Sequence record: OZ035802.1
Origin: Vectrevirus T145P2
Reading direction: 5' to 3' (one strand)
DNA: 44,662 bases
How positions within the stretch are numbered: the first letter of the stretch is position 1; every line of letters begins with the position of its first letter. Shown in pieces: positions 2,968 to 33,322 of this stretch. The translations under genes and the position numbers were made by a program. Under the pieces are notes generated by a model. The model searched no databases and was not told the origin of the DNA. It saw only the letters and a list, made by a program, of their open reading frames with translations.

Positions 2968-2969
2968 TA

Positions 2970-3439: not shown

Positions 3440-3572
3440 GTCTAAGAAGGTTGTAGGTGCACTGGTTGCACTTGTTATTGCTCTTGTTTCTGTAGGTCTT
3501 GGTGTAGACCTTGGCTCTGGCACGGAATCCTCTGTGACAGATGTGGTCTGCCAAGTGATTACCTGTGAATAA
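3423..3572 (+). CDS. small single-TMD protein (49 aa), holin/antiholin-like or N-terminal part of a spanin
   Basis: MKKLFKSKK then hydrophobic VVGALVALVIALVSVGLGV; inside lysis cassette. Confidence 0.35.
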   Translation: MKKLFKSKKVVGALVALVIALVSVGLGVDLGSGTESSVTDVVCQVITCE

Positions 3573-3786
3573 GTTCCTAGAAGTGCTGGCAGGTCTTATT
3601 GGCCTGCTTGTCTCTGCTAAGAAGAAACAAGAAGAGAAGGAGGCACAAAGTGAAGCGAATCATGCTAGCGACAATCCTGCTGATTGGTTCGCTGACCACT
3701 TCCGGGTGTCAGCAGGCGTTACCAGAGAAGGCAATGGTGAAACCTCTGAGGCCGACGCTGACGGCAGTTTACGAGGTGGACGATAA
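3565..3786 (+). CDS. candidate i-spanin-like ORF (short, atypical)
   Basis: GTG start; hydrophobic N-terminus FLEVLAGLIGLLVSA; overlaps the lipoprotein ORF in another frame. Confidence 0.3.
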   Translation: MNKFLEVLAGLIGLLVSAKKKQEEKEAQSEANHASDNPADWFADHFRVSAGVTREGNGETSEADADGSLRGGR

Positions 3787-3859
3787 GGTCTGCTTTAGTA
3801 AGCCTGACGCTACAAAATTAGGTTTGTATATTCTTTCGCTAGAACGCGGGTATAATTAA
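3650..3859 (+). CDS. candidate o-spanin (outer membrane lipoprotein, Rz1-like)
   Basis: AAGGAGG then GTG; signal peptide MKRIMLATILLIGSLTTSGC with lipobox Cys; Pro-rich mature part; starts inside the 3565..3786 ORF. Confidence 0.5.
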   Translation: MKRIMLATILLIGSLTTSGCQQALPEKAMVKPLRPTLTAVYEVDDKVCFSKPDATKLGLYILSLERGYN

Positions 3860-3888
3860 TACATAGTTTTATGTATCAGTGTCTTACG

Positions 3889-3913
3889 ATTTACTGGACA
3901 CTATAGAAGAGAT
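3889..3913 (+). promoter_or_regulatory. SP6-like phage promoter upstream of tailspike genes
   Basis: ATTTACTGGACACTATAGAAGAGAT. Confidence 0.6.
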
Positions 3914-3990
3914 AAGATAGTGCCGTTCTTTTGAGCGGCCTATTACTAGCCAATCTTCATAGGGAGGGTTGGGAAGTAATAGGAGGTCTA

Positions 3991-5430: not shown

Positions 5431-5436
5431 TCACAG

Positions 5437-5460
5437 GCAGTGCGTAAGCACTGCTTTTCG
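5437..5460 (+). terminator. stem-loop with T-run between the two tailspike genes
   Basis: GCAGTGC-GTAA-GCACTGC perfect 7-bp stem followed by TTTTCG. Confidence 0.35.
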
Positions 5461-5514
5461 CGCAACTTTTCTTAAAGGTTATCATGATGGTAGCCTTTCA
5501 GAAAAGGAGGTTAC

Positions 5515-7950
5515 ATGATTCAAAGACTAGGTTCTTCATTAGTTAAATTCAAGAGTAAAATAGCAGGTGCAATCTGGCGTAACTTGGATGACAAGCTCAC
5601 CGAGGTTGTATCGCTTAAAGATTTTGGAGCCAAAGGTGATGGTAAGACAAACGACCAAGATGCAGTAAATGCAGCGATGGCTTCAGGTAAGAGAATTGAC
5701 GGTGCTGGTGCTACTTACAAAGTATCATCTTTACCTGATATGGAGCGATTCTATAACACCCGCTTCGTATGGGAACGTTTAGCAGGTCAACCTCTTTACT
5801 ATGTGAGTAAAGGTTTTATCAATGGTGAACTCTATAAAATCACGGATAACCCTTATTACAATGCTTGGCCTCAAGACAAAGCGTTTGTATATGAGAATGT
5901 GATATATGCACCCTACATGGGTAGCGACCGTCATGGCGTTAGTCGTCTGCATGTATCATGGGTTAAGTCTGGTGACGATGGTCAAACATGGTCTACTCCA
6001 GAGTGGCTAACTGATCTGCATCCAGATTACCCTACAGTGAACTATCATTGTATGAGTATGGGTGTATGTCGCAACCGTCTGTTTGCCATGATTGAAACAC
6101 GTACTTTAGCCAAGAACGCACTAACCAATTGTGCATTGTGGGATCGCCCTATGTCTCGTAGTCTGCATCTTACTGGTGGTATCACTAAGGCTGCAAATCA
6201 GAGATATGCAACAATCCATGTACCTGATCACGGACTATTCGTGGGCGATTTTGTTAACTTCTCTAATTCTGCGGTAACAGGTGTATCAGGTGATATGACT
6301 GTTGCAACGGTAATAGATAAGGACAACTTCACGGTTCTTACACCTAACCAGCAGACTTCAGATTTGAATAACGCTGGAAAGAGTTGGCACATGGGTACTT
6401 CTTTCCATAAGTCTCCATGGCGTAAGACAGATCTTGGTCTAATCCCTAGTGTCACAGAGGTGCATAGCTTTGCTACTATTGATAACAATGGCTTTGTTAT
6501 GGGCTATCATCAAGGTGATGTAGCTCCACGAGAAGTTGGTCTTTTCTACTTCCCTGATGCTTTCAATAGCCCATCTAATTATGTTCGTCGTCAGATACCA
6601 GCTGAGTATGAACCAGATGCGGCAGAGCCATGCATCAAGTACTATGACGGTGTATTATACCTTATCACTCGTGGTACTCGTGGCGACCGACTAGGAAGCT
6701 CTTTGCATCGTAGTAGAGATATAGGTCAGACTTGGGAGTCACTGAGATTTCCACATAATGTTCATCATACTACCTTACCTTTTGCTAAAGTAGGAGATGA
6801 CCTTATTATGTTTGGTTCAGAACGTGCAGAAAATGAATGGGAAGCAGGTGCACCAGATGATCGTTACAAGGCATCTTATCCTCGTACCTTCTATGCACGA
6901 TTGAATGTAAACAATTGGAATGCAGATGATATTGAATGGGTTAACATCACAGACCAAATCTATCAAGGTGACATTGTGAACTCTAGTGTAGGTGTAGGTT
7001 CTGTTGTAGTTAAAGACAGCTACATTTACTATATCTTTGGTGGTGAAAACCATTTCAACCCAATGACTTATGGTGACAACAAAGATAAAGACCCATTTAA
7101 AGGTCATGGACACCCTACTGATATATACTGCTATAAGATGCAGATTGCAAATGACAATCGTGTATCTCGTAAGTTTACATATGGTGCAACTCCTGGTCAG
7201 GCTATACCTACTTTCATGGGTACTGATGGAATACGAAATATCCCTGCACCTTTGTATTTCTCAGATAACATTGTTACAGAGGATACTAAAGTTGGACACT
7301 TAACACTTAAAGCAAGCACAAGTTCCAATATACGATCTGAAGTGCAGATGGAAGGTGAATATGGCTTTATTGGCAAGTCTGTTCCAAAGGACAACCCAAC
7401 TGGTCAACGTTTGATTATTTGTGGTGGAGAAGAGACTTCGTCATCTTCAGGTGCACAGATAACTTTGCACGGCTCTAATTCAAGTAATGCTAAGCGTATC
7501 ACTTATAACGGAAATGAGCACCTATTCCAAGGTGCACCAATCATGCCTGCTGTAGATAACCAGTTTGCTGCTGGTGGACCTAGTAACCGATTCACTACCA
7601 TCTACCTAGGTAGTGACCCTGTTACAACTTCAGATGCTGACCACAAGTACGGTATCTCTGGTATTAATACCAAGGTGTTAAAGGCTTGGAGCAGGGTTGG
7701 TTTTAAACAGTATGGTTTGAATAGTGAAGCAGAGAGGAATCTTGATAGCATACACTTCGGTGTCTTGGCTCAGGATATTGTAGCTGCTTTTGAAGCTGAA
7801 GGATTGGATGCCATTAAGTATGGAATTGTGTCCTTCGAAGAAGGTAGGTACGGTGTGAGATATAGTGAAGTTCTAATCCTAGAGGCTGCCTACACTCGCC
7901 ATCGTCTTGATAAATTAGAGGAGATGTATGCCGCTAATAAAATCAGTTAA
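5515..7950 (+). CDS. tailspike 2, endosialidase-like with C-terminal intramolecular chaperone domain
   Basis: 811 aa; two sialidase Asp-boxes (SGDDGQTW, SRDIGQTW); last ~105 aa resemble the autocleaving chaperone domain of endosialidases with SDADHK Ser-Lys motif; N-terminal SLKDFGAKGDG. Confidence 0.8.
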   Translation: MIQRLGSSLVKFKSKIAGAIWRNLDDKLTEVVSLKDFGAKGDGKTNDQDAVNAAMASGKRIDGAGATYKVSSLPDMERFYNTRFVWERLAGQPLYYVSKGFINGELYKITDNPYYNAWPQDKAFVYENVIYAPYMGSDRHGVSRLHVSWVKSGDDGQTWSTPEWLTDLHPDYPTVNYHCMSMGVCRNRLFAMIETRTLAKNALTNCALWDRPMSRSLHLTGGITKAANQRYATIHVPDHGLFVGDFVNFSNSAVTGVSGDMTVATVIDKDNFTVLTPNQQTSDLNNAGKSWHMGTSFHKSPWRKTDLGLIPSVTEVHSFATIDNNGFVMGYHQGDVAPREVGLFYFPDAFNSPSNYVRRQIPAEYEPDAAEPCIKYYDGVLYLITRGTRGDRLGSSLHRSRDIGQTWESLRFPHNVHHTTLPFAKVGDDLIMFGSERAENEWEAGAPDDRYKASYPRTFYARLNVNNWNADDIEWVNITDQIYQGDIVNSSVGVGSVVVKDSYIYYIFGGENHFNPMTYGDNKDKDPFKGHGHPTDIYCYKMQIANDNRVSRKFTYGATPGQAIPTFMGTDGIRNIPAPLYFSDNIVTEDTKVGHLTLKASTSSNIRSEVQMEGEYGFIGKSVPKDNPTGQRLIICGGEETSSSSGAQITLHGSNSSNAKRITYNGNEHLFQGAPIMPAVDNQFAAGGPSNRFTTIYLGSDPVTTSDADHKYGISGINTKVLKAWSRVGFKQYGLNSEAERNLDSIHFGVLAQDIVAAFEAEGLDAIKYGIVSFEEGRYGVRYSEVLILEAAYTRHRLDKLEEMYAANKIS

Positions 7951-8077
7951 GCAAGCTGCTGTACGCCAGAACGCAGAAGAACTTATTCAATCAGGACGTG
8001 ACCCTAAGCAGGCATACGCCATTGCCAAGGATGTACAACGTCGTGCCTTGAAGAAACCTTCTGCATCTTCTGCTTAA
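7928..8077 (+). CDS. hypothetical small basic ORF (49 aa) at right end
   Basis: ATG overlapping tailspike 3' end in another frame; no clear RBS. Confidence 0.2.
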   Translation: MPLIKSVKQAAVRQNAEELIQSGRDPKQAYAIAKDVQRRALKKPSASSA

Positions 8078-8283
8078 GCAGGTTAATATCTTAGTGTACA
8101 CAAGGGCAGACCTAGGTTTGCTCTTAGTGCCATCAAAGGAGGGTGTAGGTATGTTATCTTTGTTGTGTATACTCAGTGATGTCCTAGGTCGTAAGAGGTA
8201 CATTCTTAGTGAAGACCAAATAAGGGACGAGAAGATACGGAGGTCGCTCACAAAGTAACCAAAGTCAAAATTTTGATATAGGC

Positions 8284-8520
8284 GTGTGTGAGGTGTCTCG
8301 CCCTCGCCCTCGCCGGATTTCCCCCATATGGGGCCGCGCTGCGGTTGGCTTGGGAATTGGGCTGGGCTGGTCCGTCTTCGACGGGTGGCCTAGGGCTTGC
8401 CGAGGTCTGCTCTTAGTGGCTGCACAAGGAGAACGCCTAGGAAGCGCTAGGGCACGCCTTAGTATTGGACAAGGTGATTGCCTTAGTGCAACCGCTTAGG
8501 GCTTACACAGGCCGTTTTAG
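8284..8520. other. GC-rich island with CTCGCC x3 and CCCCCATATGGGG palindrome (terminal-repeat candidate)
   Basis: GC content visibly above genome background; T7 carries a similar CCCCCATAGGGGG near its left end as I recall. Confidence 0.4.
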
Positions 8521-8967
8521 GGCCATTCCTGAGCATTTGACAGGGTGAGCGTGGGTGGGCTATCTGTTCGTTTCGCTCCACTACGTTACGCTACACTCAC
8601 CGCGCTTGTGTATCCTTGGTATAATCCTGATGGATGGCTTAGGTTAGCCTTAGTGGGATACCTTAGTTAAAGCCTTAGTGCTTAGCTTAGTATCAACTTA
8701 GTAGTGTACCTTAGTAAGTCTTAGTGTCTTCTCTTAGTGATTGCATAGCTAAAGCTATAAGATGCAATTAGGTCGCGGTCGGTAGACCGCTAATAAGAAG
8801 TAATAGTAATAAGATGCAGTAGGAGGAACACCAGAAACCTAGCCAACCTAGTCTATCCTAGCTCTGTATCTATTGCTTTCCTTAGTCTCACATGTTAGAC
8901 AACCTAGGTTTACCTTAGCAGTTGTGACAGGTATCACATAAATAATCTATCTTAGTGCGATTTAGTG

Positions 8968-8996
8968 TTGACGTAGGCAGTTAACAGGTATACATT
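8968..8996 (+). promoter_or_regulatory. candidate host sigma70 early promoter
   Basis: TTGACG - 17 bp - TACATT. Confidence 0.4.
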
Positions 8997-9219
8997 AGCA
9001 ATCAGTCGGGAGCGACATTAAACACTCAGGGTGAATGATAGAGAGCGTCCTTAACTATCCGGCCTAGCTACTGAAGCCGTTAAACAATGTTAGATAGTGG
9101 AAGATGGCGCAAGCATAACCTACCACGATAAACCAAGGTTAGCGCAATGCTCTTTAACAATTTGCTTAGTGTAACCTGTGTATGCCGTGGTTAATTACTT
9201 ATTGAATGAGGAATTAACT

Positions 9220-14620: not shown

Positions 14621-14654
14621 AGGCCATTCCTTAGGGAGTGGCCTTTTTCTTTAC
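14621..14654 (+). terminator. rho-independent-type terminator after RNAP gene
   Basis: AGGCCATTCC-TTAG-GGAGTGGCCT stem-loop followed by TTTTTCTTT. Confidence 0.55.
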
Positions 14655-15080: not shown

Positions 15081-17069
15081 ATGGCTATTATTCAGAATGT
15101 ACCGTGTCCTGCCTGTCAAAAGAATGGACATGATATTACTGGCAACCATCTTATGATATTTGAGGATGGCGCTGGTTACTGTAACCGTGGTCACTTCCAT
15201 GATAACGGCAAGCCTTATTACCATAAGCCAGAGGGTGGCATCGAGATAACCGAATTACCTATTACTGGCAATATCAAATATACACCTTCTCAGTTTAAAG
15301 AGATGGAGAAGGAAGGGAAGATTAGCGACCCTAAGCTACGCGCCATCGCACTTGGTGGTATGCGTATGAAAGACCGTTGGGAGGTCATGAATGAGCAAGA
15401 AAGGGCAGACCAAGAAGCAGAGTGGAAACTTGATGTTGAATGGTTCCTCACGCTTAAGCGTAAGAATCTTGTTTCCCGACACATTCGCGGCGACATTTGC
15501 GCATTGTATGATGTACGTGTCGGACACGATGAAGATGGTAGAGTCTCACGGCATTACTATCCACGCTTCGAGAAAGGTGAGCTAGTAGGCGCCAAGTGTC
15601 GCACATTACCTAAAGACTTTAAGTTTGGTCATTTAGGTAAACTCTTTGGTATGCAAGATCTTTTCGGTATGAATACTTTGTCTCACGTGTTAGACAAGGG
15701 AAGACGAAAGGATTGCTTGCTTATTGTGGGCGGCGAACTGGATGCACTAGCAGCACAGCAAATGCTCCTTGATTCTGCCAAGGGTACTAAGTGGGAAGGC
15801 CAGCCTTACCATGTATGGTCTGTCAATAAAGGTGAGTCTTGCCTTGAAGAGATAGTACAGAACCGTGAACACATCGCCCAATTTAAGAAGATTATATGGG
15901 GTTTTGATGGAGATGAGGTAGGGCAGAAGCAGAATCAGCAAGCGGCTCGCCTGTTTCCTGGCAAATCCTATATCCTTGAATACCCTTCTGGTTGCAAAGA
16001 TGCTAACAAGGCATTGATGGCTGGCAAGGCTAAAGAGTTTGTTGATGCTTGGTTTAATGCCAAGTCATCTGATGAAGTCTTTGGTAGCCAGATTAAATCT
16101 ATCGCATCTCAAAGGGATAAGCTCAAGGCTGCACGTCCAGAGCAAGGGCTATCATGGCCTTGGCCTAAGCTGAACAAGGTAACGCTAGGTATTCGTAAGA
16201 ACCAGCTTATCATTGTAGGTGCAGGCTCTGGTGTAGGTAAGACTGAGTTCCTCCGCGAAGTGGTTAAACATCTTATTGAAGAACACGGTGAATCTGTAGG
16301 CATCATTTCTACAGAAGACCCGATGGTCAAGGTGTCCCGTGCTTTTATCGGCAAGTGGATTGATAAGCGTATTGAGTTACCGCCAACCAACGACCCGAAA
16401 GAAGACGGATACCGTGAGGTGTTCGACTACACCGAGGAAGAAGCTAACGCTGCCATTGATTATGTGGCTGATACAGGAAAGCTATTTGTGGCTGACCTAG
16501 AAGGCGACTATTCTATGGAGAAGGTAGAGCAAACTTGCCTAGAGTTTGAGGCTATGGGCATTTCTAATATCATCATTGATAACTTAACGGGGATTAAATT
16601 AGATGAGCGTGCTTTTGGTGGGAAGGTTGGTGCACTTGATGAATGCGTCAAACGAATTGGTACTATCAAAGACCGACATGCGGTTACGATTTTCCTTGTC
16701 TCTCACCTTACACGTCCTCCGGCAAACCGTACCCAACACGAAGAAGGTGGCGAAGTTATCCTTTCTGACTTCCGAGGCTCAGGCGCTATCGGATTCTGGG
16801 CATCTTACGCCTTGGGGATTGAGCGTAATACAAGAGCTGAAACGCTTGATGAAAGGACTACCACGTACATCTCTTGTGTCAAAGACCGCGACCAAGGTAT
16901 CTACACAGGAACCAAAGTCATGCTCAAGGGTGACATTCAGACCGGACGTTTGAGAGAACCACAAGCTAGAACAAGGTCGTTTGATACAGGCGAAGCAAGG
17001 CAACAAGAAGTACCGGATTTACCGGACACTATAGAAGAGACAACCTTTGACGATGAACAGGGGTTTTAA
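15081..17069 (+). CDS. DNA primase-helicase
   Basis: 662 aa; N-terminal Cys-rich zinc ribbon; Walker A GAGSGVGKTEF; acidic C-terminal tail ending in Phe as in T7 gp4. Confidence 0.9.
   Translation: MAIIQNVPCPACQKNGHDITGNHLMIFEDGAGYCNRGHFHDNGKPYYHKPEGGIEITELPITGNIKYTPSQFKEMEKEGKISDPKLRAIALGGMRMKDRWEVMNEQERADQEAEWKLDVEWFLTLKRKNLVSRHIRGDICALYDVRVGHDEDGRVSRHYYPRFEKGELVGAKCRTLPKDFKFGHLGKLFGMQDLFGMNTLSHVLDKGRRKDCLLIVGGELDALAAQQMLLDSAKGTKWEGQPYHVWSVNKGESCLEEIVQNREHIAQFKKIIWGFDGDEVGQKQNQQAARLFPGKSYILEYPSGCKDANKALMAGKAKEFVDAWFNAKSSDEVFGSQIKSIASQRDKLKAARPEQGLSWPWPKLNKVTLGIRKNQLIIVGAGSGVGKTEFLREVVKHLIEEHGESVGIISTEDPMVKVSRAFIGKWIDKRIELPPTNDPKEDGYREVFDYTEEEANAAIDYVADTGKLFVADLEGDYSMEKVEQTCLEFEAMGISNIIIDNLTGIKLDERAFGGKVGALDECVKRIGTIKDRHAVTIFLVSHLTRPPANRTQHEEGGEVILSDFRGSGAIGFWASYALGIERNTRAETLDERTTTYISCVKDRDQGIYTGTKVMLKGDIQTGRLREPQARTRSFDTGEARQQEVPDLPDTIEETTFDDEQGF
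17005..17030 (+). promoter_or_regulatory. SP6-like phage promoter embedded in 3' end of primase-helicase gene
   Basis: GATTTACCGGACACTATAGAAGAGAC; encodes part of the helicase C-terminal tail. Confidence 0.6.
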
Positions 17070-19002: not shown

Positions 19003-21535
19003 TTGGAAGAAGGAAGCAGAAGGGCGTATCTTAGTAATGGATGCGGAAGCTAAAGGTCTGCTGGATGCTATCCGCTACGGTCATCGCGAAGATGTACACA
19101 TCATTTGCTGCATGGACTTGCTCACCACTGAGGAGTTCCTCTTCTTCGACCCATATGAGATGCGTGACCCTGAAGCAAGAGAACACCTGAAGGAATGGGA
19201 AGGTCATCAAGATGGTGACTTGGTTGATGGTGTTAACTTCCTGAAGCACTGTGAAGCTATTGTGTCGCAGAACTTCCTAGGGTACGACGGCCTTCTATTT
19301 GAGAAAGCATTCCCCGATATCTGGAAAGGCTTTAACTATACCGAGAGACGCGGCAAGGGCAGACTCCGCGCTGACCTGTGTCCGGTACGCGTCATGGATA
19401 CGCTGGTCATGAGTCGCCTGTTAAACCCCGATAGACGCCTCCCTCCGCAAGCATACGCCAAAGGCATGGGTAACGTAGCCCCTCACTCAATTGAGGCGCA
19501 CGGCATTCGTATAGGCCGTTATAAGCCGGAGAACGAGGATTGGTCTAAACTAACTGACCACATGGTACATCGTGTACGCGAGGACGTGGCGATTGGTCGT
19601 GACTTGTTCCTCTGGCTCTTTAACGGGGAATGGATGGAGCACAAACGCCGTGGCGTGAATAAACGCACTGGCCTAGGTATTGAGACAGCCTTCCACATGG
19701 AGTCCATTGTGGCGCTGGAGATGAGCCGTCAGGCCGAGCGTGGATTCCGTCTGGATATAGATAAAGCATTAGCACGATGCGAGGAATTGGACGCTAAGAT
19801 TGATGAGACAGTCGCAGCGTTCCGTCCGCACATGCCTATGCGTATCAAGTCTAAACCTTTTAAACCGGAAGAAAAGAATGAAGTATGCCAACGCGCAAAT
19901 GAGTATGGAGCTAGCAACAATATACCTACTGTCCTTGACCCCTCTCACTTTCTTCACGCAGAGAGACGAGGAGATCGCAAGACAGTATGGAGTGTCACTA
20001 CTAAGTCTGGTGATTGGTCGGCTAGCGTCAAGAAAGACTTTCCTCACCTTAGAGGAAACCGTAATGACACGCCAAGCATCAAGTGGATTGGCGCTTACTC
20101 GCCTGTTACTTTCGAAGAGATTCCCTTGGGTAACAGGGATACAGTTAAGCAAGTGCTCTATGATTATGGATGGAAAGGTGTTGAATTTAACGATACCGAG
20201 CAAGCGCATCTCGATGAGCACGGAGTGTTACCCAAACCTTGGAGTGGTAAGATAAATGAAAAGTCCCTTACTTTATGGCAAGAGAGAGCCGCACGTGAAG
20301 GTAAAACAGTCCCTGATTGGTGCTTGGGTATCGCTGCATGGTACATACTCGTATCCCGTCGTGGTCAGATCCTCAACCGTGGTGACGTTGAAGCCTTCGA
20401 CCAGAAGGGGGTGTGGCCTTCGCAAGCTGGTATACGAAAGTGTCGCGGCCTTGTACCTGTAGCATTTAACAAGGAGTTAGGAATCAATGCGCAGCAATAC
20501 TACGAAAGGTACGGATGCTGGCCTACGTCAGACAAGGATGACGGAGAATGGCGTGTGCCAGCTATTGCTATTAGTATTGGAACTTCTACGTTCCGTATGC
20601 GTCATCGTAACGTGGTTAATATTCCTGCCCGTGGTTTGTATCCTTTACGTGATTTATTCATAGCCGGTAAAGGTAAGCTAATCCTTGGTTGTGATGGTGC
20701 TGGTCTTGAACTACGTGTACTGTCTCACTTCATGAATGACCCTGAATATCAAGATATTGTACTGCATGGTGACATTCACACCCATAATCAAATGAAGGCT
20801 GGTCTTCCTAAGCGTGACATGGCGAAGACATTTATATATGCCTTCCTATATGGGTCTGGTATAGCTAACCTTGCAGCAGTATGTGGTGTTACTGAGGAAG
20901 AAATGGAGGAAGTTGTGGCAAGATTTGAGGTTGAACTACCATCTCTTGCACGCCTTCGTGAGAATGTTATCGCACAAGGTAACAAGTTTGGCTACCTACA
21001 AGCACCTGATGGTCATTGGGGTCGCATCCGTATGTCTGGTGGTGAACTTAAAGAGCACACTATGCTTAACGTACTACTCCAGATGACTGGTTCTCTGTGT
21101 ATGAAATACGCATTGGTCAGAGCGTTTGCAGTGATGCGCAAGGAAGGTGTGGCCTTAGATAGCATGGGAAACCCTTGCGGTATAGCTAACGTGCACGATG
21201 AAATCCAGATGGAAGTCCCTGAAGATGAGGTCTTGTATCTCAACTACGACTTGCCTTTCACCTTAGAAGGGTTCGAAACAGAGAAGGCTGCTGTGAAAGC
21301 AGTGTTCGATGCAGAGGAGAAACGTGTTCATGTGGATTCTGAAGGACGTATGTGGTCTGCTGCAAATCTCGTTAGTGTTGATGCTGATGCTGGTGTACTT
21401 CATTGCCAGCGTCGTTATCACCGTGCAGGGCATATCATTGCCGATGCAATGACTTGGGCTGGTCATTATTTGAAGATGCGTTGTCCGATGGCAGGTGAGT
21501 ATAAGATTGGTGCAAGCTGGAAGGAAACACACTGA
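18989..21535 (+). CDS. DNA polymerase, family A (T7 gp5-like)
   Basis: Motif A DGAGLELRVLSHF, motif B KTFIYAFLYGSG, motif C HDEIQMEV; N-terminal 3'-5' exonuclease region. Confidence 0.92.
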   Translation: MKSIDWKKEAEGRILVMDAEAKGLLDAIRYGHREDVHIICCMDLLTTEEFLFFDPYEMRDPEAREHLKEWEGHQDGDLVDGVNFLKHCEAIVSQNFLGYDGLLFEKAFPDIWKGFNYTERRGKGRLRADLCPVRVMDTLVMSRLLNPDRRLPPQAYAKGMGNVAPHSIEAHGIRIGRYKPENEDWSKLTDHMVHRVREDVAIGRDLFLWLFNGEWMEHKRRGVNKRTGLGIETAFHMESIVALEMSRQAERGFRLDIDKALARCEELDAKIDETVAAFRPHMPMRIKSKPFKPEEKNEVCQRANEYGASNNIPTVLDPSHFLHAERRGDRKTVWSVTTKSGDWSASVKKDFPHLRGNRNDTPSIKWIGAYSPVTFEEIPLGNRDTVKQVLYDYGWKGVEFNDTEQAHLDEHGVLPKPWSGKINEKSLTLWQERAAREGKTVPDWCLGIAAWYILVSRRGQILNRGDVEAFDQKGVWPSQAGIRKCRGLVPVAFNKELGINAQQYYERYGCWPTSDKDDGEWRVPAIAISIGTSTFRMRHRNVVNIPARGLYPLRDLFIAGKGKLILGCDGAGLELRVLSHFMNDPEYQDIVLHGDIHTHNQMKAGLPKRDMAKTFIYAFLYGSGIANLAAVCGVTEEEMEEVVARFEVELPSLARLRENVIAQGNKFGYLQAPDGHWGRIRMSGGELKEHTMLNVLLQMTGSLCMKYALVRAFAVMRKEGVALDSMGNPCGIANVHDEIQMEVPEDEVLYLNYDLPFTLEGFETEKAAVKAVFDAEEKRVHVDSEGRMWSAANLVSVDADAGVLHCQRRYHRAGHIIADAMTWAGHYLKMRCPMAGEYKIGASWKETH

Positions 21536-22664: not shown

Positions 22665-23471
22665 ATGGCACGTGGTGATTTTGATTTTGGTGCTCAGGTT
22701 ACTAAAGCTGAAGGTAAAGTATTTAAGAACCCTGAAGTTGGTGATCATGAAGCAGTAATCTCTGGCATCATTCATGTTGGTTCCTTCCAAGATATCTTTA
22801 AGAAAGGTAATACCACTGAAGTTAAGAAGCCAGCAAACTTTGTTCTTGTTAAGATTATCCTGATGGGTGACGACGATAAGAATGAAGATGATTCTCGCAT
22901 GGAACAATGGATGGCTGTGCCTCTGAAGTCTGGTGATAAGGCAACACTGACTAAGTTCCTGAATGCAGTTGACCCTAAAGAGTTGCTGGGTGGCTTCGAT
23001 GATTTTATCGGTGAATGTCTGACTGCAACTATGGTTGGTTCTGGCGACAAGAATGATGATGGTACTTTCAAGTATGTTAACTGGAAAGGCTTTGGCGGTA
23101 TGCCTGATAAGTTGAAGAAGCTTGTACTGGCTCAGGTAGAAGAGGAAGGTCTGTCTATGACAGGTCATATCACCTTCGACAAGCTGACCAAAGAAATCCT
23201 TGATGACATCCCAGCTAACTTGGTACGTCAATACTTCCTGAACGAGACACCTCGTGGTAAGAACCTGTCTGTTGCTGGCTCTCACGTAGAAGCTATTATC
23301 AAAGCTGCTCGTGAAGAAGACCCTGAATGGAAGAAGGCTAAGAAGAAAGACGAGGAAGATGCTACCCCAGCTAATCGTAAATCTCTGGATACTGGTGAGT
23401 CTGTTCCACAGGAAGTACCTGAAGCAGAAGATACTCCTGCACCGGAGATGGATGAGGACGCGGAATATTAA
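22665..23471 (+). CDS. hypothetical acidic protein, candidate ssDNA-binding protein
   Basis: 268 aa; codon usage looks highly-expressed-like; acidic C-terminal tail ending in Tyr (EMDEDAEY), reminiscent of T7 gp2.5 tail logic. SSB call is inference only. Confidence 0.5.
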   Translation: MARGDFDFGAQVTKAEGKVFKNPEVGDHEAVISGIIHVGSFQDIFKKGNTTEVKKPANFVLVKIILMGDDDKNEDDSRMEQWMAVPLKSGDKATLTKFLNAVDPKELLGGFDDFIGECLTATMVGSGDKNDDGTFKYVNWKGFGGMPDKLKKLVLAQVEEEGLSMTGHITFDKLTKEILDDIPANLVRQYFLNETPRGKNLSVAGSHVEAIIKAAREEDPEWKKAKKKDEEDATPANRKSLDTGESVPQEVPEAEDTPAPEMDEDAEY

Positions 23472-23700: not shown

Positions 23701-23716
23701 GTCTCACGTGTGAGAC
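23701..23716. repeat. GTCTCACGTGTGAGAC palindrome, copy 5
   Basis: variant core, directly after stop codon and upstream of promoter. Confidence 0.65.
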
Positions 23717-23730
23717 AAATCGGTGTCCGG

Positions 23731-23757
23731 TATTTACTGGACACTATAGAAGAGAAG
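23731..23757 (+). promoter_or_regulatory. SP6-like phage promoter
   Basis: TATTTACTGGACACTATAGAAGAGAAG. Confidence 0.65.
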
Positions 23758-23804
23758 AATTTTAATCGGCGATAATGCCATAACCAACAAAAGGAGAATT
23801 TAAT

Positions 23805-24176
23805 ATGTTCAAGATTGAAACTATCGTAAACCGTGTTGTTAAAGGTGCTGCTCTGGTATCCGTTGAGTCTTTCATTATCGTCGATGAAGCTGATCAACTG
23901 GTAGCTGGTACTAAGGCTTACGATACCCGTGAAGAAGCTCAGGCTAAGATTGACAGCATGGGTAACTTCGCTGCTGGTCTGGAGTTCGCTCGTGCTTGCT
24001 TCCCTGAGCAGGCTGACAAAGCCCAGATCGGGAAGGCTAACATCGTAGCTGAATATCTGGATTGGATTGCTGCTGGTAAACCAGTGAAAGAAGTTAAAGC
24101 TGCTGAAGAAGCTGAAGCTCCTGCAGTAGAAGTGTCTGCACCGGAAGCTCCGGTTAGCGAAGAGGAAGAGTTTTGA
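23805..24176 (+). CDS. hypothetical abundant-looking acidic protein (123 aa)
   Basis: AAGGAGA RBS; biased codon usage; own promoter and downstream terminator hairpin; C-terminal tail PVSEEEEF. Confidence 0.6.
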   Translation: MFKIETIVNRVVKGAALVSVESFIIVDEADQLVAGTKAYDTREEAQAKIDSMGNFAAGLEFARACFPEQADKAQIGKANIVAEYLDWIAAGKPVKEVKAAEEAEAPAVEVSAPEAPVSEEEEF

Positions 24177-24235
24177 TAATAGCAGGTGTAGCCTCTGTTA
24201 GTCCTAGTTGACTATCACGCTCACCTCATCTAATG

Positions 24236-24267
24236 CCCTGTCTGCCTTAGTGTAGGCAGGGTCTTTT
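24236..24267 (+). terminator. terminator-like hairpin plus T-run
   Basis: TCTGCC-TTAGTGTA-GGCAGG then GTCTTTTG; same architecture as the hairpin after the capsid gene. Confidence 0.45.
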
Positions 24268-24293
24268 GCGTAATAGTTATTGGAGAATGAATT

Positions 24294-24584
24294 ATGCCGA
24301 CTATTGAAGATCGTTTCCAGATTCACGCATCTTACTCGCCTATGCTTAGAGGTCATCTTATTACCATTAGATTAGATTATGAGTTGTATCTTGTAGATTA
24401 TTTATATACAGACTATGACTGCCAACGTAACATGGTGGGACCGATGAGGTGGGCGGCTGAGTGGGTGCGCGAGCACGTGCTGAAGGAGTGGCCTACATGC
24501 GACCAAACTTCGACTTCGGAGCTACAGTATCGGAAGACAATAATCTCATCCTGTGGCCGACTGAAGGTAATCGAATCGCTTTAA
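24294..24584 (+). CDS. hypothetical protein (96 aa) overlapping exonuclease start
   Basis: GGAGAATGAATT RBS; 3' end overlaps exonuclease coding sequence by ~88 nt in another frame. Confidence 0.35.
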   Translation: MPTIEDRFQIHASYSPMLRGHLITIRLDYELYLVDYLYTDYDCQRNMVGPMRWAAEWVREHVLKEWPTCDQTSTSELQYRKTIISSCGRLKVIESL

Positions 24585-25525
24585 TAGATGCCGATATGTT
24601 GCCTTACATCGTCGCGTATACAATCAGCGACATGACTTATGTACGAGCCATAACTCGTGTTAAGTCAGGACAAGTCCCATCAATCAAAGATACGCCTGAG
24701 TGTAAGCAAGCGTGTGACCGTGTGAACTCCTTGCTTAACTCTTGGGTGTATGCAGCAGAATGTGATGCAGCTAAGTTATTCATGACGAAATCAGAAGCTA
24801 ACTTCCGTGTCCGCCTAGCATTCACCAAGCCTTATAAAGGTCAACGTAAGACCGAGAAGCCTCCATTCTTCTATGAATTGCGAGAGCATCTCTTAGAGGT
24901 TCACGGTGCAATCTTGGCAGATGGAGAGGAAGCAGACGACCTCATGAGTATCGCACAATGGGACAGCCACCGCCGCTTCCAGCAAGATACAGGTAACGAG
25001 TTCCCTATCGGTAGTCCAGAGCATAAAGCATTCTCTGATACTTGCATCGTTTCCTTGGATAAGGATTTGATGATTGTTCCCGGTTGGCATCTACAGCCGG
25101 GTCAAGAGAAGAAGTGGGTAGAGCCTATGGGCTGGCTTGAGCTACGCCGTAAGGCTAATGGGCAAGTCAAAGATCTAAAAGGTGCTGGCCTCATGTTCCA
25201 CTATGCACAGATGATTATCGGTGATGATATTGATAACTATGCTGGCATACCAGGTCGTGGTGCTAAATATGCCTATGATCTTCTCAAAGGTTGTAAGACA
25301 GAGAAAGAATTGTACATGGCAGTGCTTGGTGCTTACAAAGCTAAGTTCGGTCATGGACAGGTTAAGATTAAGAATTACCGAGGTGGTTATCGGGTGGGCA
25401 AAGCCTTTGACCTTATGCTTGAATGCGGTCGCTTAGCTCACATGGCTAGGTTCAAAGGTGATATATGGCGAGCCGATAAGAACCCAATCTTGTGGGGAGA
25501 TGATGCGGAATGGTTAGCAAATTAA
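24497..25525 (+). CDS. 5'-3' exonuclease, FEN-like (T7 gp6-like)
   Basis: Acidic motifs IALIDADM, ADGEEADD, SLDKDL, IGDDIDNYAGIPGRG align with T7 gene 6 exonuclease as I recall it. Confidence 0.85.
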   Translation: MRPNFDFGATVSEDNNLILWPTEGNRIALIDADMLPYIVAYTISDMTYVRAITRVKSGQVPSIKDTPECKQACDRVNSLLNSWVYAAECDAAKLFMTKSEANFRVRLAFTKPYKGQRKTEKPPFFYELREHLLEVHGAILADGEEADDLMSIAQWDSHRRFQQDTGNEFPIGSPEHKAFSDTCIVSLDKDLMIVPGWHLQPGQEKKWVEPMGWLELRRKANGQVKDLKGAGLMFHYAQMIIGDDIDNYAGIPGRGAKYAYDLLKGCKTEKELYMAVLGAYKAKFGHGQVKIKNYRGGYRVGKAFDLMLECGRLAHMARFKGDIWRADKNPILWGDDAEWLAN

Positions 25526-25923
25526 AAGCATCGGAGGTGGCAGCTTATAAGAAGGAATTGCTAGATAAGCAAGGATGGAAATGCCCTCTGTGTGGTGGCA
25601 GTCTCAAAGCTGTCACACCTGTAAACCGTGTACTTGACCATGACCATGAGACAGGATTCTGCCGTGCTGTTGTATGCCGAGGTTGCAATGGTGCGGAAGG
25701 GAAGATTAAGGGTGTTATCTCTGGTTATGGCAAGGCGGGTAATAACCGTTACTTCCAGCTTCAATGGTTAGAGAGATTGTACGAATACTGGAAGTTACAT
25801 AGTACGCCTCAGACAGATAAGTTATATCACAAACATCAAACGGAGGCAGAGAAGCGCGAGGCTAAGAACCGTAAGGCACGCCTTGCTTATGCAAGAAAGA
25901 AGAAGGAGGTTAAAGTTGGGTAA
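25510..25923 (+). CDS. endonuclease VII-like Holliday junction resolvase
   Basis: CPLCGG...DHDHETGFCRAVVCRGCN matches the T4 endonuclease VII zinc-binding/catalytic signature. Confidence 0.75.
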   Translation: MVSKLKASEVAAYKKELLDKQGWKCPLCGGSLKAVTPVNRVLDHDHETGFCRAVVCRGCNGAEGKIKGVISGYGKAGNNRYFQLQWLERLYEYWKLHSTPQTDKLYHKHQTEAEKREAKNRKARLAYARKKKEVKVG

Positions 25924-26923
25924 GCTTCGCAGCTTGTACAAAGACTCCGAGGTACTTGATGCAATCGAGCAAGCTACCGACGAGAAAGGTAATGTTAACT
26001 ACAACGAGATGGCACGGGTATTATCGTGTCACCCTGTGGGTAAGAAGATTACCCGCCAGTTGGCTCGATACTGGCATGGTCAATTCAAGAAGACCAAGAA
26101 GAATGGTGATTACTACCAGACTCTTCTGCAAGAGGATAAGCGTATCAAAGAAGAGCGTAAGCTCAGGACTCCTGACCGCTACGAGGATTTGGCTATTGTA
26201 CCACTGCCTGACTCGCCTCATCGAAGTGTACTGGTAATCCCTGACACTCATGCACCTTACGAGCACCCAGATACCTTAGAGTTTCTGGCAGCGGTGGCAG
26301 CACGTTACCGTCCAGACACTGTAGTTCATCTGGGGGATGAGGCAGATAAACATGCCTTATCGTTCCACGATTCAGACCCCAATCTGGATAGTGCTGGCAT
26401 GGAGTTAGAGAAGGCCCGTGTCTTTATGCATAAATTACACAAGATGTTTCCTGTGATGCGCCTGTGTCATTCTAATCACGGCTCTATGCACTTCCGTAAG
26501 GCAAGCGCTAAGGGTATCCCTGTGCAATACTTGCGTACCTATCGAGAAGTCTTCTTTCCGCATGGGGGTGGCGACCAGTGGGATTGGCAGCATACACACG
26601 TTCTTGAGTTGCCGAATGGTGAACAGGTTGCATTTAAGCATCAACCAGCAGGCTCAGTCTTAGCAGATGCAGCGCATGAGCGCATGAACTTAGTGTGCGG
26701 TCACTTGCATGGTAAGATGTCGGTGGAGTATGCACGTAACACACATGAACAGTATTGGGCTGTGCAGGGCGGCTGTCTGATTGATGAGTCATCTCGTGCA
26801 TTTGCCTATGGTCGTGAGTCCAAATACAAGCCAGCATTAGGTTGTGTGGTTATTCTGGAGGGTGTGCCGCACATTGTCCCGATGCAGACCAATAGTGACA
26901 ATCGCTGGATTGGTAAGATTTAG
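25916..26923 (+). CDS. calcineurin-like metallophosphoesterase
   Basis: Motifs IPDTHAPY, HLGDEAD, HSNHG, CGHLHG in canonical order; start likely TTG after AAGGAGG (an upstream ATG at 25883 runs through rare AGA/AGG codons). Confidence 0.7.
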   Translation: MGKLRSLYKDSEVLDAIEQATDEKGNVNYNEMARVLSCHPVGKKITRQLARYWHGQFKKTKKNGDYYQTLLQEDKRIKEERKLRTPDRYEDLAIVPLPDSPHRSVLVIPDTHAPYEHPDTLEFLAAVAARYRPDTVVHLGDEADKHALSFHDSDPNLDSAGMELEKARVFMHKLHKMFPVMRLCHSNHGSMHFRKASAKGIPVQYLRTYREVFFPHGGGDQWDWQHTHVLELPNGEQVAFKHQPAGSVLADAAHERMNLVCGHLHGKMSVEYARNTHEQYWAVQGGCLIDESSRAFAYGRESKYKPALGCVVILEGVPHIVPMQTNSDNRWIGKI

Positions 26924-27463: not shown

Positions 27464-27580
27464 ATGACTTGTCCTAATTGTGGAAGTGAAGAAACAGAAC
27501 ATGTAGTTATGTCAGATACTTATCATTTCTACTTCTGTCATAGCTGCGACACCACCATTGAAGAGGAAGAAGCTGTATGA
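27464..27580 (+). CDS. hypothetical zinc-ribbon mini-protein (38 aa)
   Basis: CPNCGS...CHSCD; overlaps ligase start. Confidence 0.35.
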   Translation: MTCPNCGSEETEHVVMSDTYHFYFCHSCDTTIEEEEAV

Positions 27581-28524
27581 ATATATTCCAATTCCTAGGT
27601 CTTCCAGAAGACCACCGCAATCACCCATTCATGCTGGTGAAACATCGCGGTGAAGTACCTGAGAAGAAATTAACTTTTCCATGTTATGCACAGGTAAAAC
27701 GAGATGGTATATTTAGTGCTGTGGTTGTTCGCAACGATGGTGTCGTTGGTATCTTTGGACGCACTGGAAAGAAACTGGCTAACACGGAAACCTTGGAAGA
27801 ATCTTATTCAGCTTTCCCTACTGGCATTTATCTCGGTGAGTTGCAATCTATGGCTATTGATGTCTACCTTGAAGCACTTTCTGGAGTAGTTAACCCTAAC
27901 CGCACTGAGCCACTGGATTTCATAGGCCAGCAGATTAAAGACAACCTGTATATCGACTTCTTCGATATGTTAACCATTAAGGCATTCCATGATGGATTCA
28001 CTGATGTTTCTTATCTCAAACGTTACGATGCTTTACATCGTCGCATCGGCGCTCATCTTAGCGGGTACAACGCTATCCTTCCTATTACTCCTTGCCATAA
28101 TGAGCGAGAAGTTGAAGCGTTTGCGCAAGAGCAAATAGACGCAGGCCGAGAGGGTGCTGTGTTTAAACTGGACTGTGATTATGAAGCAGGCCACAAAGGT
28201 TATCGTCAGACTAAAGAAGTCCGTAAGGTAACTTATGACCTTACTTGTATTGGCTTTGAAGAAGGCAAAGGTAAGTACAAAGGTAAGGTAGCTAACCTCA
28301 TTTTCAAATGGAAAGGGGGCAAGACAATCAAAGCTATGTTAGGTAAAGGGTGGACTCATGCAGATGCAGAACAGATGTTCCACGATATTAAACATGGTGG
28401 ACGATTGAATGTCATTGGTAAAATCTTTGAAGTAAAAGGTCTTCAGGATTCAAGCAAGGGCAACATTCGTCTGCCCAAAGCGGGAGAATTAAGACATGAC
28501 AAAGATGAACCAGACTTCTTTTGA
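27577..28524 (+). CDS. ATP-dependent DNA ligase
   Basis: 315 aa; adenylation motif KRDG (AQVKRDGIFSAVV) and overall nucleotidyltransferase-like layout. Confidence 0.8.
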   Translation: MNIFQFLGLPEDHRNHPFMLVKHRGEVPEKKLTFPCYAQVKRDGIFSAVVVRNDGVVGIFGRTGKKLANTETLEESYSAFPTGIYLGELQSMAIDVYLEALSGVVNPNRTEPLDFIGQQIKDNLYIDFFDMLTIKAFHDGFTDVSYLKRYDALHRRIGAHLSGYNAILPITPCHNEREVEAFAQEQIDAGREGAVFKLDCDYEAGHKGYRQTKEVRKVTYDLTCIGFEEGKGKYKGKVANLIFKWKGGKTIKAMLGKGWTHADAEQMFHDIKHGGRLNVIGKIFEVKGLQDSSKGNIRLPKAGELRHDKDEPDFF

Positions 28525-28711
28525 TAGCATGAAGGCAACTCGTGCAGTTGAGGTAGCAGAAGCTATCTTCGAAACTTTATCCTGTGGCATGGAAGTGCCA
28601 TATACTTTACTTGCTGATGCAGAAGAACTTGGTCTTTCTGTAGAAGCTATCCAAGAGAAGGTTGACGAATTATATGGTACAGACGAAGAAGAAACCGACG
28701 ATTTCATTTGA
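28496..28711 (+). CDS. hypothetical acidic protein (71 aa)
   Basis: GGAGA RBS; overlaps ligase 3' end. Confidence 0.4.
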   Translation: MTKMNQTSFDSMKATRAVEVAEAIFETLSCGMEVPYTLLADAEELGLSVEAIQEKVDELYGTDEEETDDFI

Positions 28712-33285: not shown

Positions 33286-33322
33286 TATGCCCTATCTACC
33301 TTGCGTAGGTAGGGTTCTTTTT
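33286..33322 (+). terminator. terminator-like hairpin plus T-run after capsid gene
   Basis: TCTACC-TTGCGTA-GGTAGG then GTTCTTTTTG. Confidence 0.5.

Follow-up and report, generated by a model that had tools for sequence, protein, structure and literature searches.

A predicted highly expressed, acidic-tailed protein of the SP6-like phage replication module is a candidate replisome accessory factor

A short gene that has its own promoter, strong ribosome binding site, highly biased codons and terminator, and that is nonetheless set among genes for DNA replication, raises the question of what its small acidic product might do in such apparent quantity. The gene considered here is in the 44,662-nucleotide sequence of Vectrevirus T145P2 (OZ035802.1; the window), which is a whole Vectrevirus genome of the K1E/K1-5/SP6 group. 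SP6, K1-5 and K1E are classic phages; phage therapy makes use of their relatives, and laboratories rely on SP6 RNA polymerase as a standard tool. The ORF at 23805-24176 was identified, by DNA match, as gene 18 of K1-5, and its product (gp18; 123 residues, 13.2 kDa, pI 4.36) corresponds to gp20 of SP6. It matches the PHROG 4429 profile over essentially the full length of both (E = 2.3e-58; residues 1-123 on positions 1-121 of 121).

Annotation of the unit existed already. It carries little functional content, in that the homologues in 212 phage records are labelled hypothetical with few exceptions, i.e. one 'putative ATPase' and a few that are unannotated or bear an unrelated automatic label. 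Searches of Pfam, NCBIfam and PDB sequences, with single sequences and with profiles of the gene 18 family, returned only noise, and a scan of the whole window against Rfam gave no match. Querying the literature with accession numbers and locus tags yielded nothing relevant to gene 18, and no transcriptomic or proteomic studies of the SP6/K1-5 phage group were found; papers on Gifsy defence, Acadevirus and Vibrio phages do not include gene 18 in their content.

Gene 18 is located in the replication/recombination module, i.e. the class II (DNA-metabolism) block, in the conserved order DNA polymerase ... gp16 - gp17 - gp18 - exonuclease - endonuclease VII - phosphoesterase, which is apparent in the Molineuxvirinae, the Colwellvirinae and a Ralstonia phage. 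The gp16 gene is always two genes upstream of that for gp18, and in PM116 the gene 18 copy is truncated. The features of the locus, together with those elsewhere in the genome with which it is compared, are collected in Table 1.

Table 1. Features of the gene 18 locus and related elements, numbered by position in the window.
Feature	Position	Strand	Description
Primase/helicase	15081..17069	+	ends ...EETTFDDEQGF; tail tip of the gp18 kind
gp16, orphan 268-aa protein	22665..23471	+	ends ...EMDEDAEY; own promoter at 22586
16-bp palindrome GTCTCACGTGTGAGAC	23701..23716	+	directly 3' of the gp17 stop; promoter 15 nt downstream
SP6-type phage RNA polymerase promoter ATTTACTGGACACTATAGAAGAG	23732..23754	+	predicted +1 at G23749
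Leader, 56 nt	23749..23804	+	A-rich, essentially unstructured; Shine-Dalgarno AAGGAG 23791-23796
Folded core, codons 1-95	23805..24089	+	predicted beta-hairpin 3-26, long helices 42-65 and 71-89
Disordered Ala/Glu/Pro/Val linker, codons 96-117	24090..24155	+	pLDDT <50; length and sequence vary
Conserved tip S-E-E-E-E-F-COOH, codons 118-123, plus stop TGA	24156..24176	+	identified by conservation
Class I terminator (hairpin + U-run)	24235..24268	+	GCCCTGTCTGCC-TTAGTG-TAGGCAGGGT then CTTTTG
Terminator of the major capsid gene, paralogous to that of gene 18	33289..33321	+	hairpin identical to SP6 't5'

The elements on which the original prediction was built, i.e. promoter, ribosome binding site, 123-residue ORF, codon bias, and hairpin with T-run, were all found where it had placed them and all exceed chance expectation. 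The promoter is identical to the genome consensus at 22 of 23 positions; allowing up to three mismatches, its 23-mer has eight matches in the window against 0.00 expected, and a position weight matrix (PWM) built from the 11 promoters of this genome gives it 38.4 bits, the joint top value of the genome. It is a copy, lying upstream of a gene, of the 23-nt SP6-type consensus ATTTAnnnGACACTATAGAAGnn, of which the genome holds 13 sites in total, where none would be expected by chance. Initiation at this promoter would probably occur at G23749. Genus-specific promoter motifs are present at the equivalent position in SP6, PP1, PM116, Kp7, Reminis, AS51, Nerthus, HJG and phiY2, and the AS51 record has a promoter annotated there.

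Whether the palindrome just upstream of the promoter belongs to the unit is uncertain. It occurs in eight copies in the genome (0.01 expected), folds as RNA into a hairpin (-7.2 kcal/mol, z = -2.8), and has counterparts by position, with other arm sequences, in SP6, PP1, PM116, Reminis and AS51.

The Shine-Dalgarno sequence is separated by 8 nt from the ATG at 23805, and folding of the leader (-4.8 kcal/mol, z = -0.8) revealed no significant stabilising 5' stem-loop. A tiny GGC-N6-GCC hairpin is seen in the leaders of relatives, its size being insufficient for any claim. The fraction of optimal codons in gene 18 (90/120 = 0.75) is the highest of all genes, compared with 0.518 for the remaining genome (binomial P = 1.6e-7) and 0.67 for the capsid gene; all four Leu codons are CTG, all three Arg codons CGT and 21 of the 24 Ala codons GCT. 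Translation ends at three in-frame stops, TGA TAA TAG.

The hairpin downstream of the gene (24235-24262) has an 11-bp stem of -18.3 kcal/mol (z = -4.5), a stability equalled by none of 200 shuffles; it is G+C-rich and is followed immediately by a U-run (CUUUUG), as is characteristic of class I intrinsic terminators. This hairpin and the capsid gene terminator are paralogues that differ in the stem by compensated changes. The SP6 t5 terminator, with the sequence ATGCCCTATCTACCTTGCGTAGGTAGGGTTCTTTTG (PMC11347151 supplement), stops SP6 RNA polymerase in vitro with 86% efficiency (PMC11347151), and the relationship in sequence would suggest that termination after gene 18 is likewise efficient. In 10 other genera, too, the homologue of gene 18 is followed by a hairpin, with a stem of 11-13 bp, an energy of -19 to -25 kcal/mol and a z of -4.6 to -5.9, and the MK373771 record has the element annotated as a terminator. 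Overall, the promoter-gene-terminator layout is kept in 12 genera, with promoter and stem sequences that differ.

The proposal that gene 18 forms a monocistronic, self-contained unit holds in part. Gene 18 is promoter-proximal in, and the sole gene of, its own transcript; however, two upstream promoters, at 21818 and 22586, also read into it, no terminator having been found in the interval, and their transcripts have gene 18 as the last gene. At the other end, no separate promoter serves gp19 and the genes for exonuclease, endonuclease VII and phosphoesterase (24294-26923): between 24262 and 26918 the best PWM score is -3.5 bits, whereas real sites score 21 bits or more. Because the downstream exonuclease block is without a promoter, the gene 18 terminator must leak. 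Read-through had been put forward as an observation that would count against the hairpin being a terminator; partial read-through is expected, and therefore does not do so.

In the proposed arrangement, polymerases initiating at 23732 would be joined by those arriving from 21818 and 22586; most would stop at the 24235-24268 hairpin and a minority would continue into gp19, the two nucleases and the phosphoesterase. With most polymerases stopping and a minority passing, the terminator would therefore serve as an attenuator, giving a high ratio of gp18 to the nucleases, while the unstructured leader, strong Shine-Dalgarno sequence and optimal codons would further raise translational output. The sequence signals, together with their conservation across 12 genera, lend good support to the claim of high expression; within the class II block of SP6-like phages, expression is probably strongest for gene 18, and gp18 is likely to be abundant.

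It may be that expression is overstated by such signals, with the hairpin being mainly an RNA-stability or processing element and gp18 being of ordinary abundance. The T-run after the hairpin is indeed short (CTTTTG), and the corresponding tract in Kp7 is T-poor. However, the hairpin is paralogous to a terminator proven in vitro, the codon bias is the strongest, the promoter is joint best and the features are conserved over 12 genera, such that we consider ordinary abundance very unlikely.

In its consensus promoter, strong ribosome binding site, optimal codons and class I terminator, which closes transcripts from upstream yet permits read-through, the gene 18 unit resembles the phi10-gene 10-Tphi unit of T7 and the capsid/t5 unit of SP6. 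By contrast with these, it comprises a non-structural gene of 123 codons amid replication genes, and its leader is without the 5' stem-loop that is present in the capsid leader.

The likely role of gp18 is best approached from its predicted structure. AlphaFold2 models (37 sequences) have a pLDDT for the core of about 88, with all five models concordant, and the core includes the conserved motif GKANxxAxYLxWxxxGKP. The core fold gave no convincing match in structural comparison and has no recognisable relative. A lead to the DUF1508/UPF0339 family (presumably PF07411), which has no known function, yielded no Pfam match in 24 gp18 members at E values up to 10, and hhalign against E. coli YegP (with an approximate YegP sequence) returned a probability of 0.2; gp18 has two extra long helices and a tail beyond the beta-beta-alpha domain of the YegP type.

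Identity in the core is 95% to SP6 and 40-51% to homologues from Ralstonia, Vibrio and Aeromonas phages. Over phages with hosts from Escherichia to Ralstonia, Vibrio and Aeromonas, conservation of the core is on a par with that of the exonuclease, endonuclease VII and gp16, which argues for a partner of gp18 that is phage-encoded or universal. The linker, by contrast, has indels even between close relatives. The tip is without variation among 17 close relatives; in 24 diverse members there is a terminal aromatic residue in 91% and Glu at -2 in 82%. The aromatic tip is missing in 4 of the 24 diverse members aligned, and in these no frameshift restores it. The four tip-less relatives are all on contigs of ~1 kb.

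The distribution of charge bears on the suggestion, included in the original prediction, that gp18 is a DNA mimic, i.e. a folded protein of the Ocr/ArdA/Gam kind with a rigid surface copying the phosphate backbone. Its small size, overall pI and apparent abundance would be in keeping with such a protein. However, the predicted core is near-neutral (11 basic and 14 acidic residues, net charge -3, family mean -2; core pI 4.9), whereas the disordered tail of 28 residues has a net charge of -9, roughly three quarters of the negative excess of the protein. Moreover, no structural match was found to any known DNA mimic, the class that includes Ocr, ArdA, Gam and gp5.9, and gene 18 is a middle gene of the replication block rather than an early gene. 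A role as a folded DNA mimic is thus highly improbable.

The [D/E]-x-[D/E]-F tip of the tail has counterparts, alike in form, at the ends of two further proteins of these phages, the primase/helicase and gp16. In the 12 genera compared, an acidic stretch with a terminal Phe or Tyr is present on the helicase in 11, the gp16-like protein in 11 and the gp18-like protein in 10, i.e. gp18 shares its tip with the other tail-bearing replisome proteins of its phage. A terminal Tyr on gp18 was found only in Kp7 and HJG, both of which have Tyr-ending helicases; in Kp7 the helicase, gp16-like and gp18-like proteins all end with Tyr, and in HJG all three end A[A/S]Y. The covariation of Phe and Tyr between gp18 and helicase (Fisher about 0.03, over the nine genomes in which both proteins end with an aromatic residue) is only suggestive, and it is imperfect because gp16 ends with Tyr and gp18 with Phe in the window, SP6 and PP1.

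There is a precedent in T7, where gp2.5 and gp4 have like endings, ...EDGDF and ...NDTDF respectively. [quoted passage not shown] In SP6-like phages, as in T7, several proteins of what would be one replisome have a common tip, and gene 18, too, lies in the class II replication block. Tail-bearing proteins number two in T7 and three in SP6-like phages (helicase, gp16 and gp18). Unlike gp2.5 and gp4, gp18 has a core of ~95 residues, predicted to comprise a beta-hairpin and helices and thus different from both an OB fold and a helicase, and its sequence is not similar to that of any T7 protein from this region. High expression, such as is proposed for gp18, is expected for T7 gp2.5.

We therefore tentatively favour a reading in which gp18 is, quite possibly, an accessory protein of the replisome, present in abundance and docking by way of its acidic tail. 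Among the three roles originally suggested, i.e. DNA mimic, replisome factor and host-takeover protein, that of replisome factor is the best fit in view of module position, core conservation and tail tip. gp18 would have an SSB-like build on a different fold, in which a core that is small and of alpha/beta type is followed by a disordered, acidic linker and then by the [D/E]-x-[D/E]-Phe-COOH tip. The tip would dock in a site formed by a basic patch and a hydrophobic pocket, most likely on the phage DNA polymerase. In this protein of 848 residues, alignment to T7 gp5 is limited to the palm and fingers (residues 558-749), and no receiving basic patch could be identified on it. The tips of the primase/helicase and gp16 would be received at the same site, in parallel with the competition of T7 gp4 and gp2.5 for gp5, and the core of gp18 would supply a second contact. 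By analogy with T7, gp18 would thus be predicted to bind the polymerase and to affect replication, as an accessory or exchange factor. Against the docking model, an abundant competitor for the docking site of helicase and gp16 could be harmful rather than helpful. The family members without an aromatic tip, the truncated copy in PM116 and the imperfect covariation with gp16 count against it as well.

A more specific version is that gp18 is, in SP6-like phages (Molineuxvirinae, Colwellvirinae and relatives), a third, very abundant, non-OB and non-enzymatic tail client, absent from T7, that competes with the helicase and gp16 tails for a single docking site on the polymerase and so controls polymerase loading, exchange or processivity. 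We regard this version as doubtful. T7 depends on host thioredoxin, and the third client may possibly act as a substitute for it.

The SSB-like build raises the alternative that gp18 is itself the nucleic acid-coating protein of the phage, SSB or histone-like, with a non-OB fold and an acidic tail that recruits partners and occludes the DNA-binding face. E. coli SSB consists of a DNA-binding core, a disordered linker and a nine-residue acidic tip, ...DDDIPF (PMC7145534), and gp18 is like it in its three-part layout, variable linker and conserved tip with a final Phe, i.e. it has the disordered acidic C-terminal tail with conserved terminal aromatic that is typical of SSBs. This layout, together with abundance, is what would be expected of an SSB from E. 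coli SSB (PMC7145534) and T7 gp2.5. These phages have no annotated SSB, and none could be detected, gp16 and gp18 both being orphans; conserved residues of the gp18 core (K37, K72, K77 and N79, with the aromatics F23, F61, Y84 and W87) could make up a binding face. However, unlike E. coli SSB, gp18 is without an OB fold and without Ile-Pro in its tip, and its core is net-negative, the last being a weak argument against ssDNA binding. As an OB-fold SSB in particular, gp18 gave no OB/SSB fold match and no Pfam, NCBIfam or PDB sequence match. In addition, gp16, with its 268 residues, own promoter and the same tail, is by size no worse a candidate. On balance, it is unlikely that gp18 is the coating protein.

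With respect to gp16, homology to T7 gp2.5 was not supported by phmmer, by profile searches of the PDB or by hhalign against T7 gp2.5, and a match to an NCBIfam phage replication-initiation family is sub-threshold (E 0.0015, 18 bits compared with a cut-off of 75). For these reasons, we refer to gp16 only as a candidate SSB.

The slot occupied by gene 18, between DNA polymerase and exonuclease, is that of T7 genes 5.3-5.9, including those for two small proteins, gp5.5 (an H-NS binder) and gp5.9 (a RecBCD inhibitor). Of the two, gp5.5 reaches a very high abundance, and gp5.9 is an acidic protein. gp18 could be their positional counterpart, a host-takeover decoy, the tail of which imitates the host SSB tip, or DNA, and titrates SSB-interacting or DNA-end-processing enzymes. 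The C-terminal code of E. coli SSB is likewise an acidic tip with a terminal Phe (PMC7145534), and a high copy number would suit a stoichiometric decoy. By contrast with gp5.5 and gp5.9, however, gp18 has a disordered tail with a terminal Phe, and is the product of a conserved core gene, with conservation matching that of replication enzymes across very different hosts; genes for host takeover tend to vary. In sequence, gp18 is not similar to T7 gp5.5, gp5.7 or gp5.9, and the tip of gp18 tracks those of its own helicase and gp16 (Tyr in Kp7 and HJG) in a manner not explained by a fixed host motif. We thus judge the decoy explanation improbable, to about the same extent as that of a coating protein, and retain the replisome accessory reading.

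The most strongly expressed non-structural gene of these classic phages, as judged by sequence signals, carries a hypothetical label in nearly all records. Its terminator is a sister of the phage terminator with the highest efficiency measured so far (86%), and, of practical interest, its promoter-leader-terminator cassette is a compact expression unit, already optimised in nature, for polymerases of the SP6 type. Should docking through a tail code prove true, two orphan families, gp16 and gp18, would gain roles, and the 'acidic tail / basic patch' exchange model of T7 would become a three-client system. Should, further, the reading of gp18 as a third tail client prove correct, it would represent a new class of replisome accessory protein, with gp16 as a second orphan partner.

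A DNA search with a 1.3-kb query around gene 18 matched 103 phage records, the top matches being Vectrevirus/K1E/K1-5-like phages (97-99.6% identity), followed by SP6-like Salmonella phages; the window is therefore a complete SP6-like podovirus genome of ~44.7 kb (Autographiviridae, Molineuxvirinae). The ORF at 23805-24176 corresponds to gene 18 of K1-5 (AAR90060.1) and to gp20 of SP6. Gene 18 is at 23805 here versus 14663 in the K1-5 record AY370674, a rotation of ~9.1 kb, and the window thus begins near putative packaging/lysis genes, not in the early region; two large ORFs near its start (within 1-9000) look tail-fibre- or tail-spike-like. Query coverage with many relatives was ~87%, in two pieces, the alignment breaking near gene 19 (24294-24584), just 3' of the gene 18 unit.

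All the elements of the original prediction, i.e. a promoter, a strong ribosome-binding site, a 123-codon ORF with codon usage like that of highly expressed E. coli genes, and a hairpin plus T-run, are present. The SP6-type promoter, the 23-mer ATTTACTGGACACTATAGAAGAG at 23732-23754, has eight copies in the window with up to three mismatches, where none is expected, and has the joint top score (38.4 bits) with a weight matrix trained on the window's own 11 promoters. A Shine-Dalgarno sequence, AAGGAG, lies 8 nt 5' of the ATG. The fraction of E. coli-optimal codons (Fop) is 0.75, the highest of all genes in the window (capsid gene, 0.67), compared with 0.518 in the remaining genome (P = 1.6e-7); Leu is always CTG, Arg always CGT and Ala GCT in 21 of 24 cases. 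On these signals gp18 would be abundant, and it is very unlikely that its expression has been overstated. A GGC-N6-GCC mini-hairpin at 23768-23779, ~20 nt into the leader, recurs in nine genera with arms flipped or compensated (GCC...GGC in Reminis, AS51 and HJG); the leader fold in the window alone is not significant (z = -0.8).

On the + strand of that genome half, only one other hairpin matches the quality of that following gene 18, and it follows the major capsid gene (see table). From their arms (GCCCTGTCTGCC...GGCAGGGT and GCCCTATCTACC...GGTAGGGT, respectively) the two are obvious paralogues; two stem positions differ, one G-C being replaced by A-U on both sides and a G·U by A-U. The capsid hairpin has exactly the sequence of SP6 't5', as printed in the supplement of PMC11347151, a terminator at which SP6 RNA polymerase terminated with 86% efficiency in single-molecule and bulk assays (PMC11347151). 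The gene 18 hairpin is thus a credible terminator, the efficiency of which can only be inferred. Given this paralogy and that one GenBank record already annotates a terminator directly 3' of a gene 18 homologue, the expression unit is real but not new, being already annotated in published work as well as in sequence records. The spacer between stop codon and terminator (24177-24234) is 58 nt in the window and K1-5, versus only 5 nt in SP6 and phage R4596; in the former it opens with two additional in-frame stops, so that gene 18 ends TGA TAA TAG.

Hairpins and palindromic repeats in the window
Feature	Position	Strand	Remarks
Gene 18 terminator hairpin	24235-24262	+	11-bp stem, -18.3 kcal/mol, z = -4.5, then CTTTTG
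Capsid-gene hairpin, 3' of major capsid gene	33289-33315	+	paralogue of gene 18 hairpin
Palindrome copies, 16 bp each	8885, 14688, 14879, 15680, 17248, 18643, 23701, 40187		
Hairpin + T-run 3' of phage RNA polymerase gene	14621-14644		AGGCCATTCC-TTAG-GGAGTGGCCT then TTTTTC

The unit has its own promoter and terminator, as proposed, but is not self-contained. The stretches from the promoters at 21818 and 22586 to gene 18 contain no + strand terminator-like site, so transcripts from these promoters also end at the gene 18 terminator. The region from there to the next promoter (26918) contains no promoter, its best matrix score being -3.5 bits when every real site scores 21 bits or more; gp19, exonuclease, endonuclease VII and phosphoesterase are therefore transcribable only via read-through, which would make the hairpin an attenuator. 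The Tphi terminator of T7 acts as an attenuator, and the gene 18 hairpin may be its analogue. Read-through had been proposed to speak against a terminator; partial read-through is, however, compatible with one, since the promoterless downstream genes depend on leakage. Given such an attenuator, it can be inferred that cumulative transcription within the replication block would peak at gene 18.

Eight copies of a palindrome, GTCTCAC(A/G)TGTGAGAC, perfect or nearly so, are present in the window versus 0.01 expected, mostly directly 3' of stop codons, with one copy within the primase/helicase gene; the copies at 14688 and 23701 lie 2 and 15 nt, respectively, 5' of phage promoters. Relatives have palindromes with other arms 5' of the gene 18 promoter (SP6 GTCTAACGCGTTGGAC, PP1 GTCCAACGTGTTGGAC, Reminis TGTCTCCTATAAGAGACA). 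The palindrome could act as a hairpin in RNA processing or stability, or as an operator bound by a dimeric protein. The strong hairpin after the RNA polymerase gene, presumably an early terminator for host RNA polymerase, is followed by two palindrome copies and promoters at 14706 and (weaker) 14900.

The locus was compared in 12 genera (Vectrevirus, Zindervirus, Axomammavirus, Acadevirus, an unclassified Klebsiella Molineuxvirinae phage, Eracentumvirus, a Ralstonia phage, Kaohsiungvirus, Uliginvirus, Murciavirus, an Aeromonas phage and a Shewanella phage). The gene order in all of them is DNA polymerase, gp16-like (~260 codons), usually gp17-like (~70 codons), gp18-like, exonuclease, endonuclease VII and phosphoesterase. 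A genus-specific phage promoter directly precedes the gp18-like gene in nearly all compared genomes; in Marinomonas CPP1m no promoter motif was visible within just 50 nt upstream. Immediately 3' of the gene come a hairpin of 11-13 bp (-19 to -25 kcal/mol, z = -4.6 to -5.9) and a T-rich tract; stem sequences differ among genera, so that structure, not sequence, is conserved. In Proteus phage PM116 a ~180 bp insert (within 2839-3143), flanked by a 42-nt direct repeat (2839-2880 and 3021-3062), interrupts the gene; the annotated ORF lacks the acidic-Phe tip, and a 51-codon ORF downstream keeps ...TSEEEEF and the terminator. The gene is intact in Proteus phage Premi.

The protein itself is an uncharacterised orphan. 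It matches PHROG 4429 (unknown function) over its full length, with no match in Pfam or NCBIfam; its profile recovered only 27 clusters at 50% identity from 1.84 billion representative proteins. Homologues occur in 212 of 50,697 phage records (tblastn), labelled hypothetical in nearly all annotated ones. The records listed are all 42-47-kb podoviruses, of Escherichia, Salmonella, Klebsiella, Proteus, Pectobacterium, Erwinia, Pantoea, Edwardsiella, Vibrio, Aeromonas, Shewanella, Marinomonas and Pseudomonas, with a Ralstonia phage added by the DNA search. Core identity to the window is 95% in SP6, 71-73% in PP1, PM116 and Kp7, 51-52% in S2 and Reminis, and 40-43% in AS51 and HJG. Exonuclease, endonuclease VII and gp16 are conserved to about the same degree, and the helicase, within Molineuxvirinae, somewhat more. 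That phages of hosts so different retain gp18 as a core gene argues for a partner that is phage-encoded or universal over a host-specific target.

Alignments divide gp18 into a core of ~95 residues, near-invariant in Vectrevirus and Zindervirus (motif GKANxxAxYLxWxxxGKP), an Ala/Glu/Pro/Val linker with indels even among close relatives, and a conserved S-E-E-E-E-F tip (last residue aromatic in 91%, Glu at -2 in 82% of 24 diverse members), absent, with no frameshift rescue, in four of the 24. AlphaFold2, with 37 input sequences, yields a consistent model in which the core (pLDDT ~88) has a β-hairpin (3-26) followed by long helices (42-65 and 71-89), whereas pLDDT is < 50 for residues 98-121. 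The core has 11 basic and 14 acidic residues, and the tail a net charge of -9. A folded DNA mimic, one of the roles originally offered, is thus highly improbable, the charge being in the disordered tail. A role for gp18 as the missing SSB or as a DNA-coating protein of new fold is unlikely, given that its core is net negative and that gp16 exists.

Acidic stretches ending in an aromatic residue are shared with the window's primase/helicase (...FDDEQGF) and gp16 (...MDEDAEY). Among the 12 genera a terminal F/Y is present in 11 helicases, 11 gp16-like and 10 gp18-like proteins, the exceptions being the SP6 helicase (F at -3), PM116 (disrupted gene) and Nerthus (one or two more residues after F in both gp16 and gp18). 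Tips are alike within a genome, e.g. ...ESEY, ...GEEY and ...AEEY in Kp7, and ...GASY, ...EAAY and ...DAAY in Aeromonas HJG; ADEEF ends both helicase and gp16 in Reminis. A terminal Y of gp18 occurs only in two genomes, both with a helicase terminal Y, a co-occurrence that is only suggestive (Fisher P ~0.03, nine genomes). [quoted passage not shown] No gp18-like protein is present among the T7 proteins of that region; SP6-like phages, with tails on helicase, gp16 and gp18, therefore have a third such protein, with no counterpart in T7.

The gp16 protein (22665-23471) likewise represents an orphan family (PHROG 862, without a Pfam match, 106 of 106 homologues unnamed), with its own promoter and a high Fop of 0.64; it is a candidate for the unassigned SSB of SP6-like phages, although no sequence relationship to T7 gp2.5 or to any solved structure was found. 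The DNA ligase (27577-28524) ends ...DKDEPDFF in the window and ...VDADF and ...TTGDF in HJG and Nerthus (ligase genes at 19089-20039 and 19927-20877 of their sequences), and an acidic 71-residue ORF (28496-28711) ends ...EEETDDFI, so more replication-block proteins may use such a C terminus.

Among the roles originally offered, a replisome factor is the best reading, if a tentative one: gp18 may be abundant and serve the replisome as an accessory or exchange factor, its C-terminal tip docking where the helicase and gp16 tails dock, most likely on DNA polymerase, with the conserved core as a second contact. Counting against this reading are that no receiving patch was identified on the phage DNA polymerase, the tip-less members, and a mismatch between gp16 (Y) and gp18 (F) in three genera. 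A host-directed decoy imitating the SSB tip would fit a gene position analogous to those of T7 gp5.5 and gp5.9, but is improbable for a conserved core gene with a tip matching others within the same phage. The rest of the probability lies with something else. The new elements are an architecture like that of SSB but with a non-OB core, and a tail code common to gp18, helicase and gp16; together they yield a specific hypothesis that can be tested cheaply.
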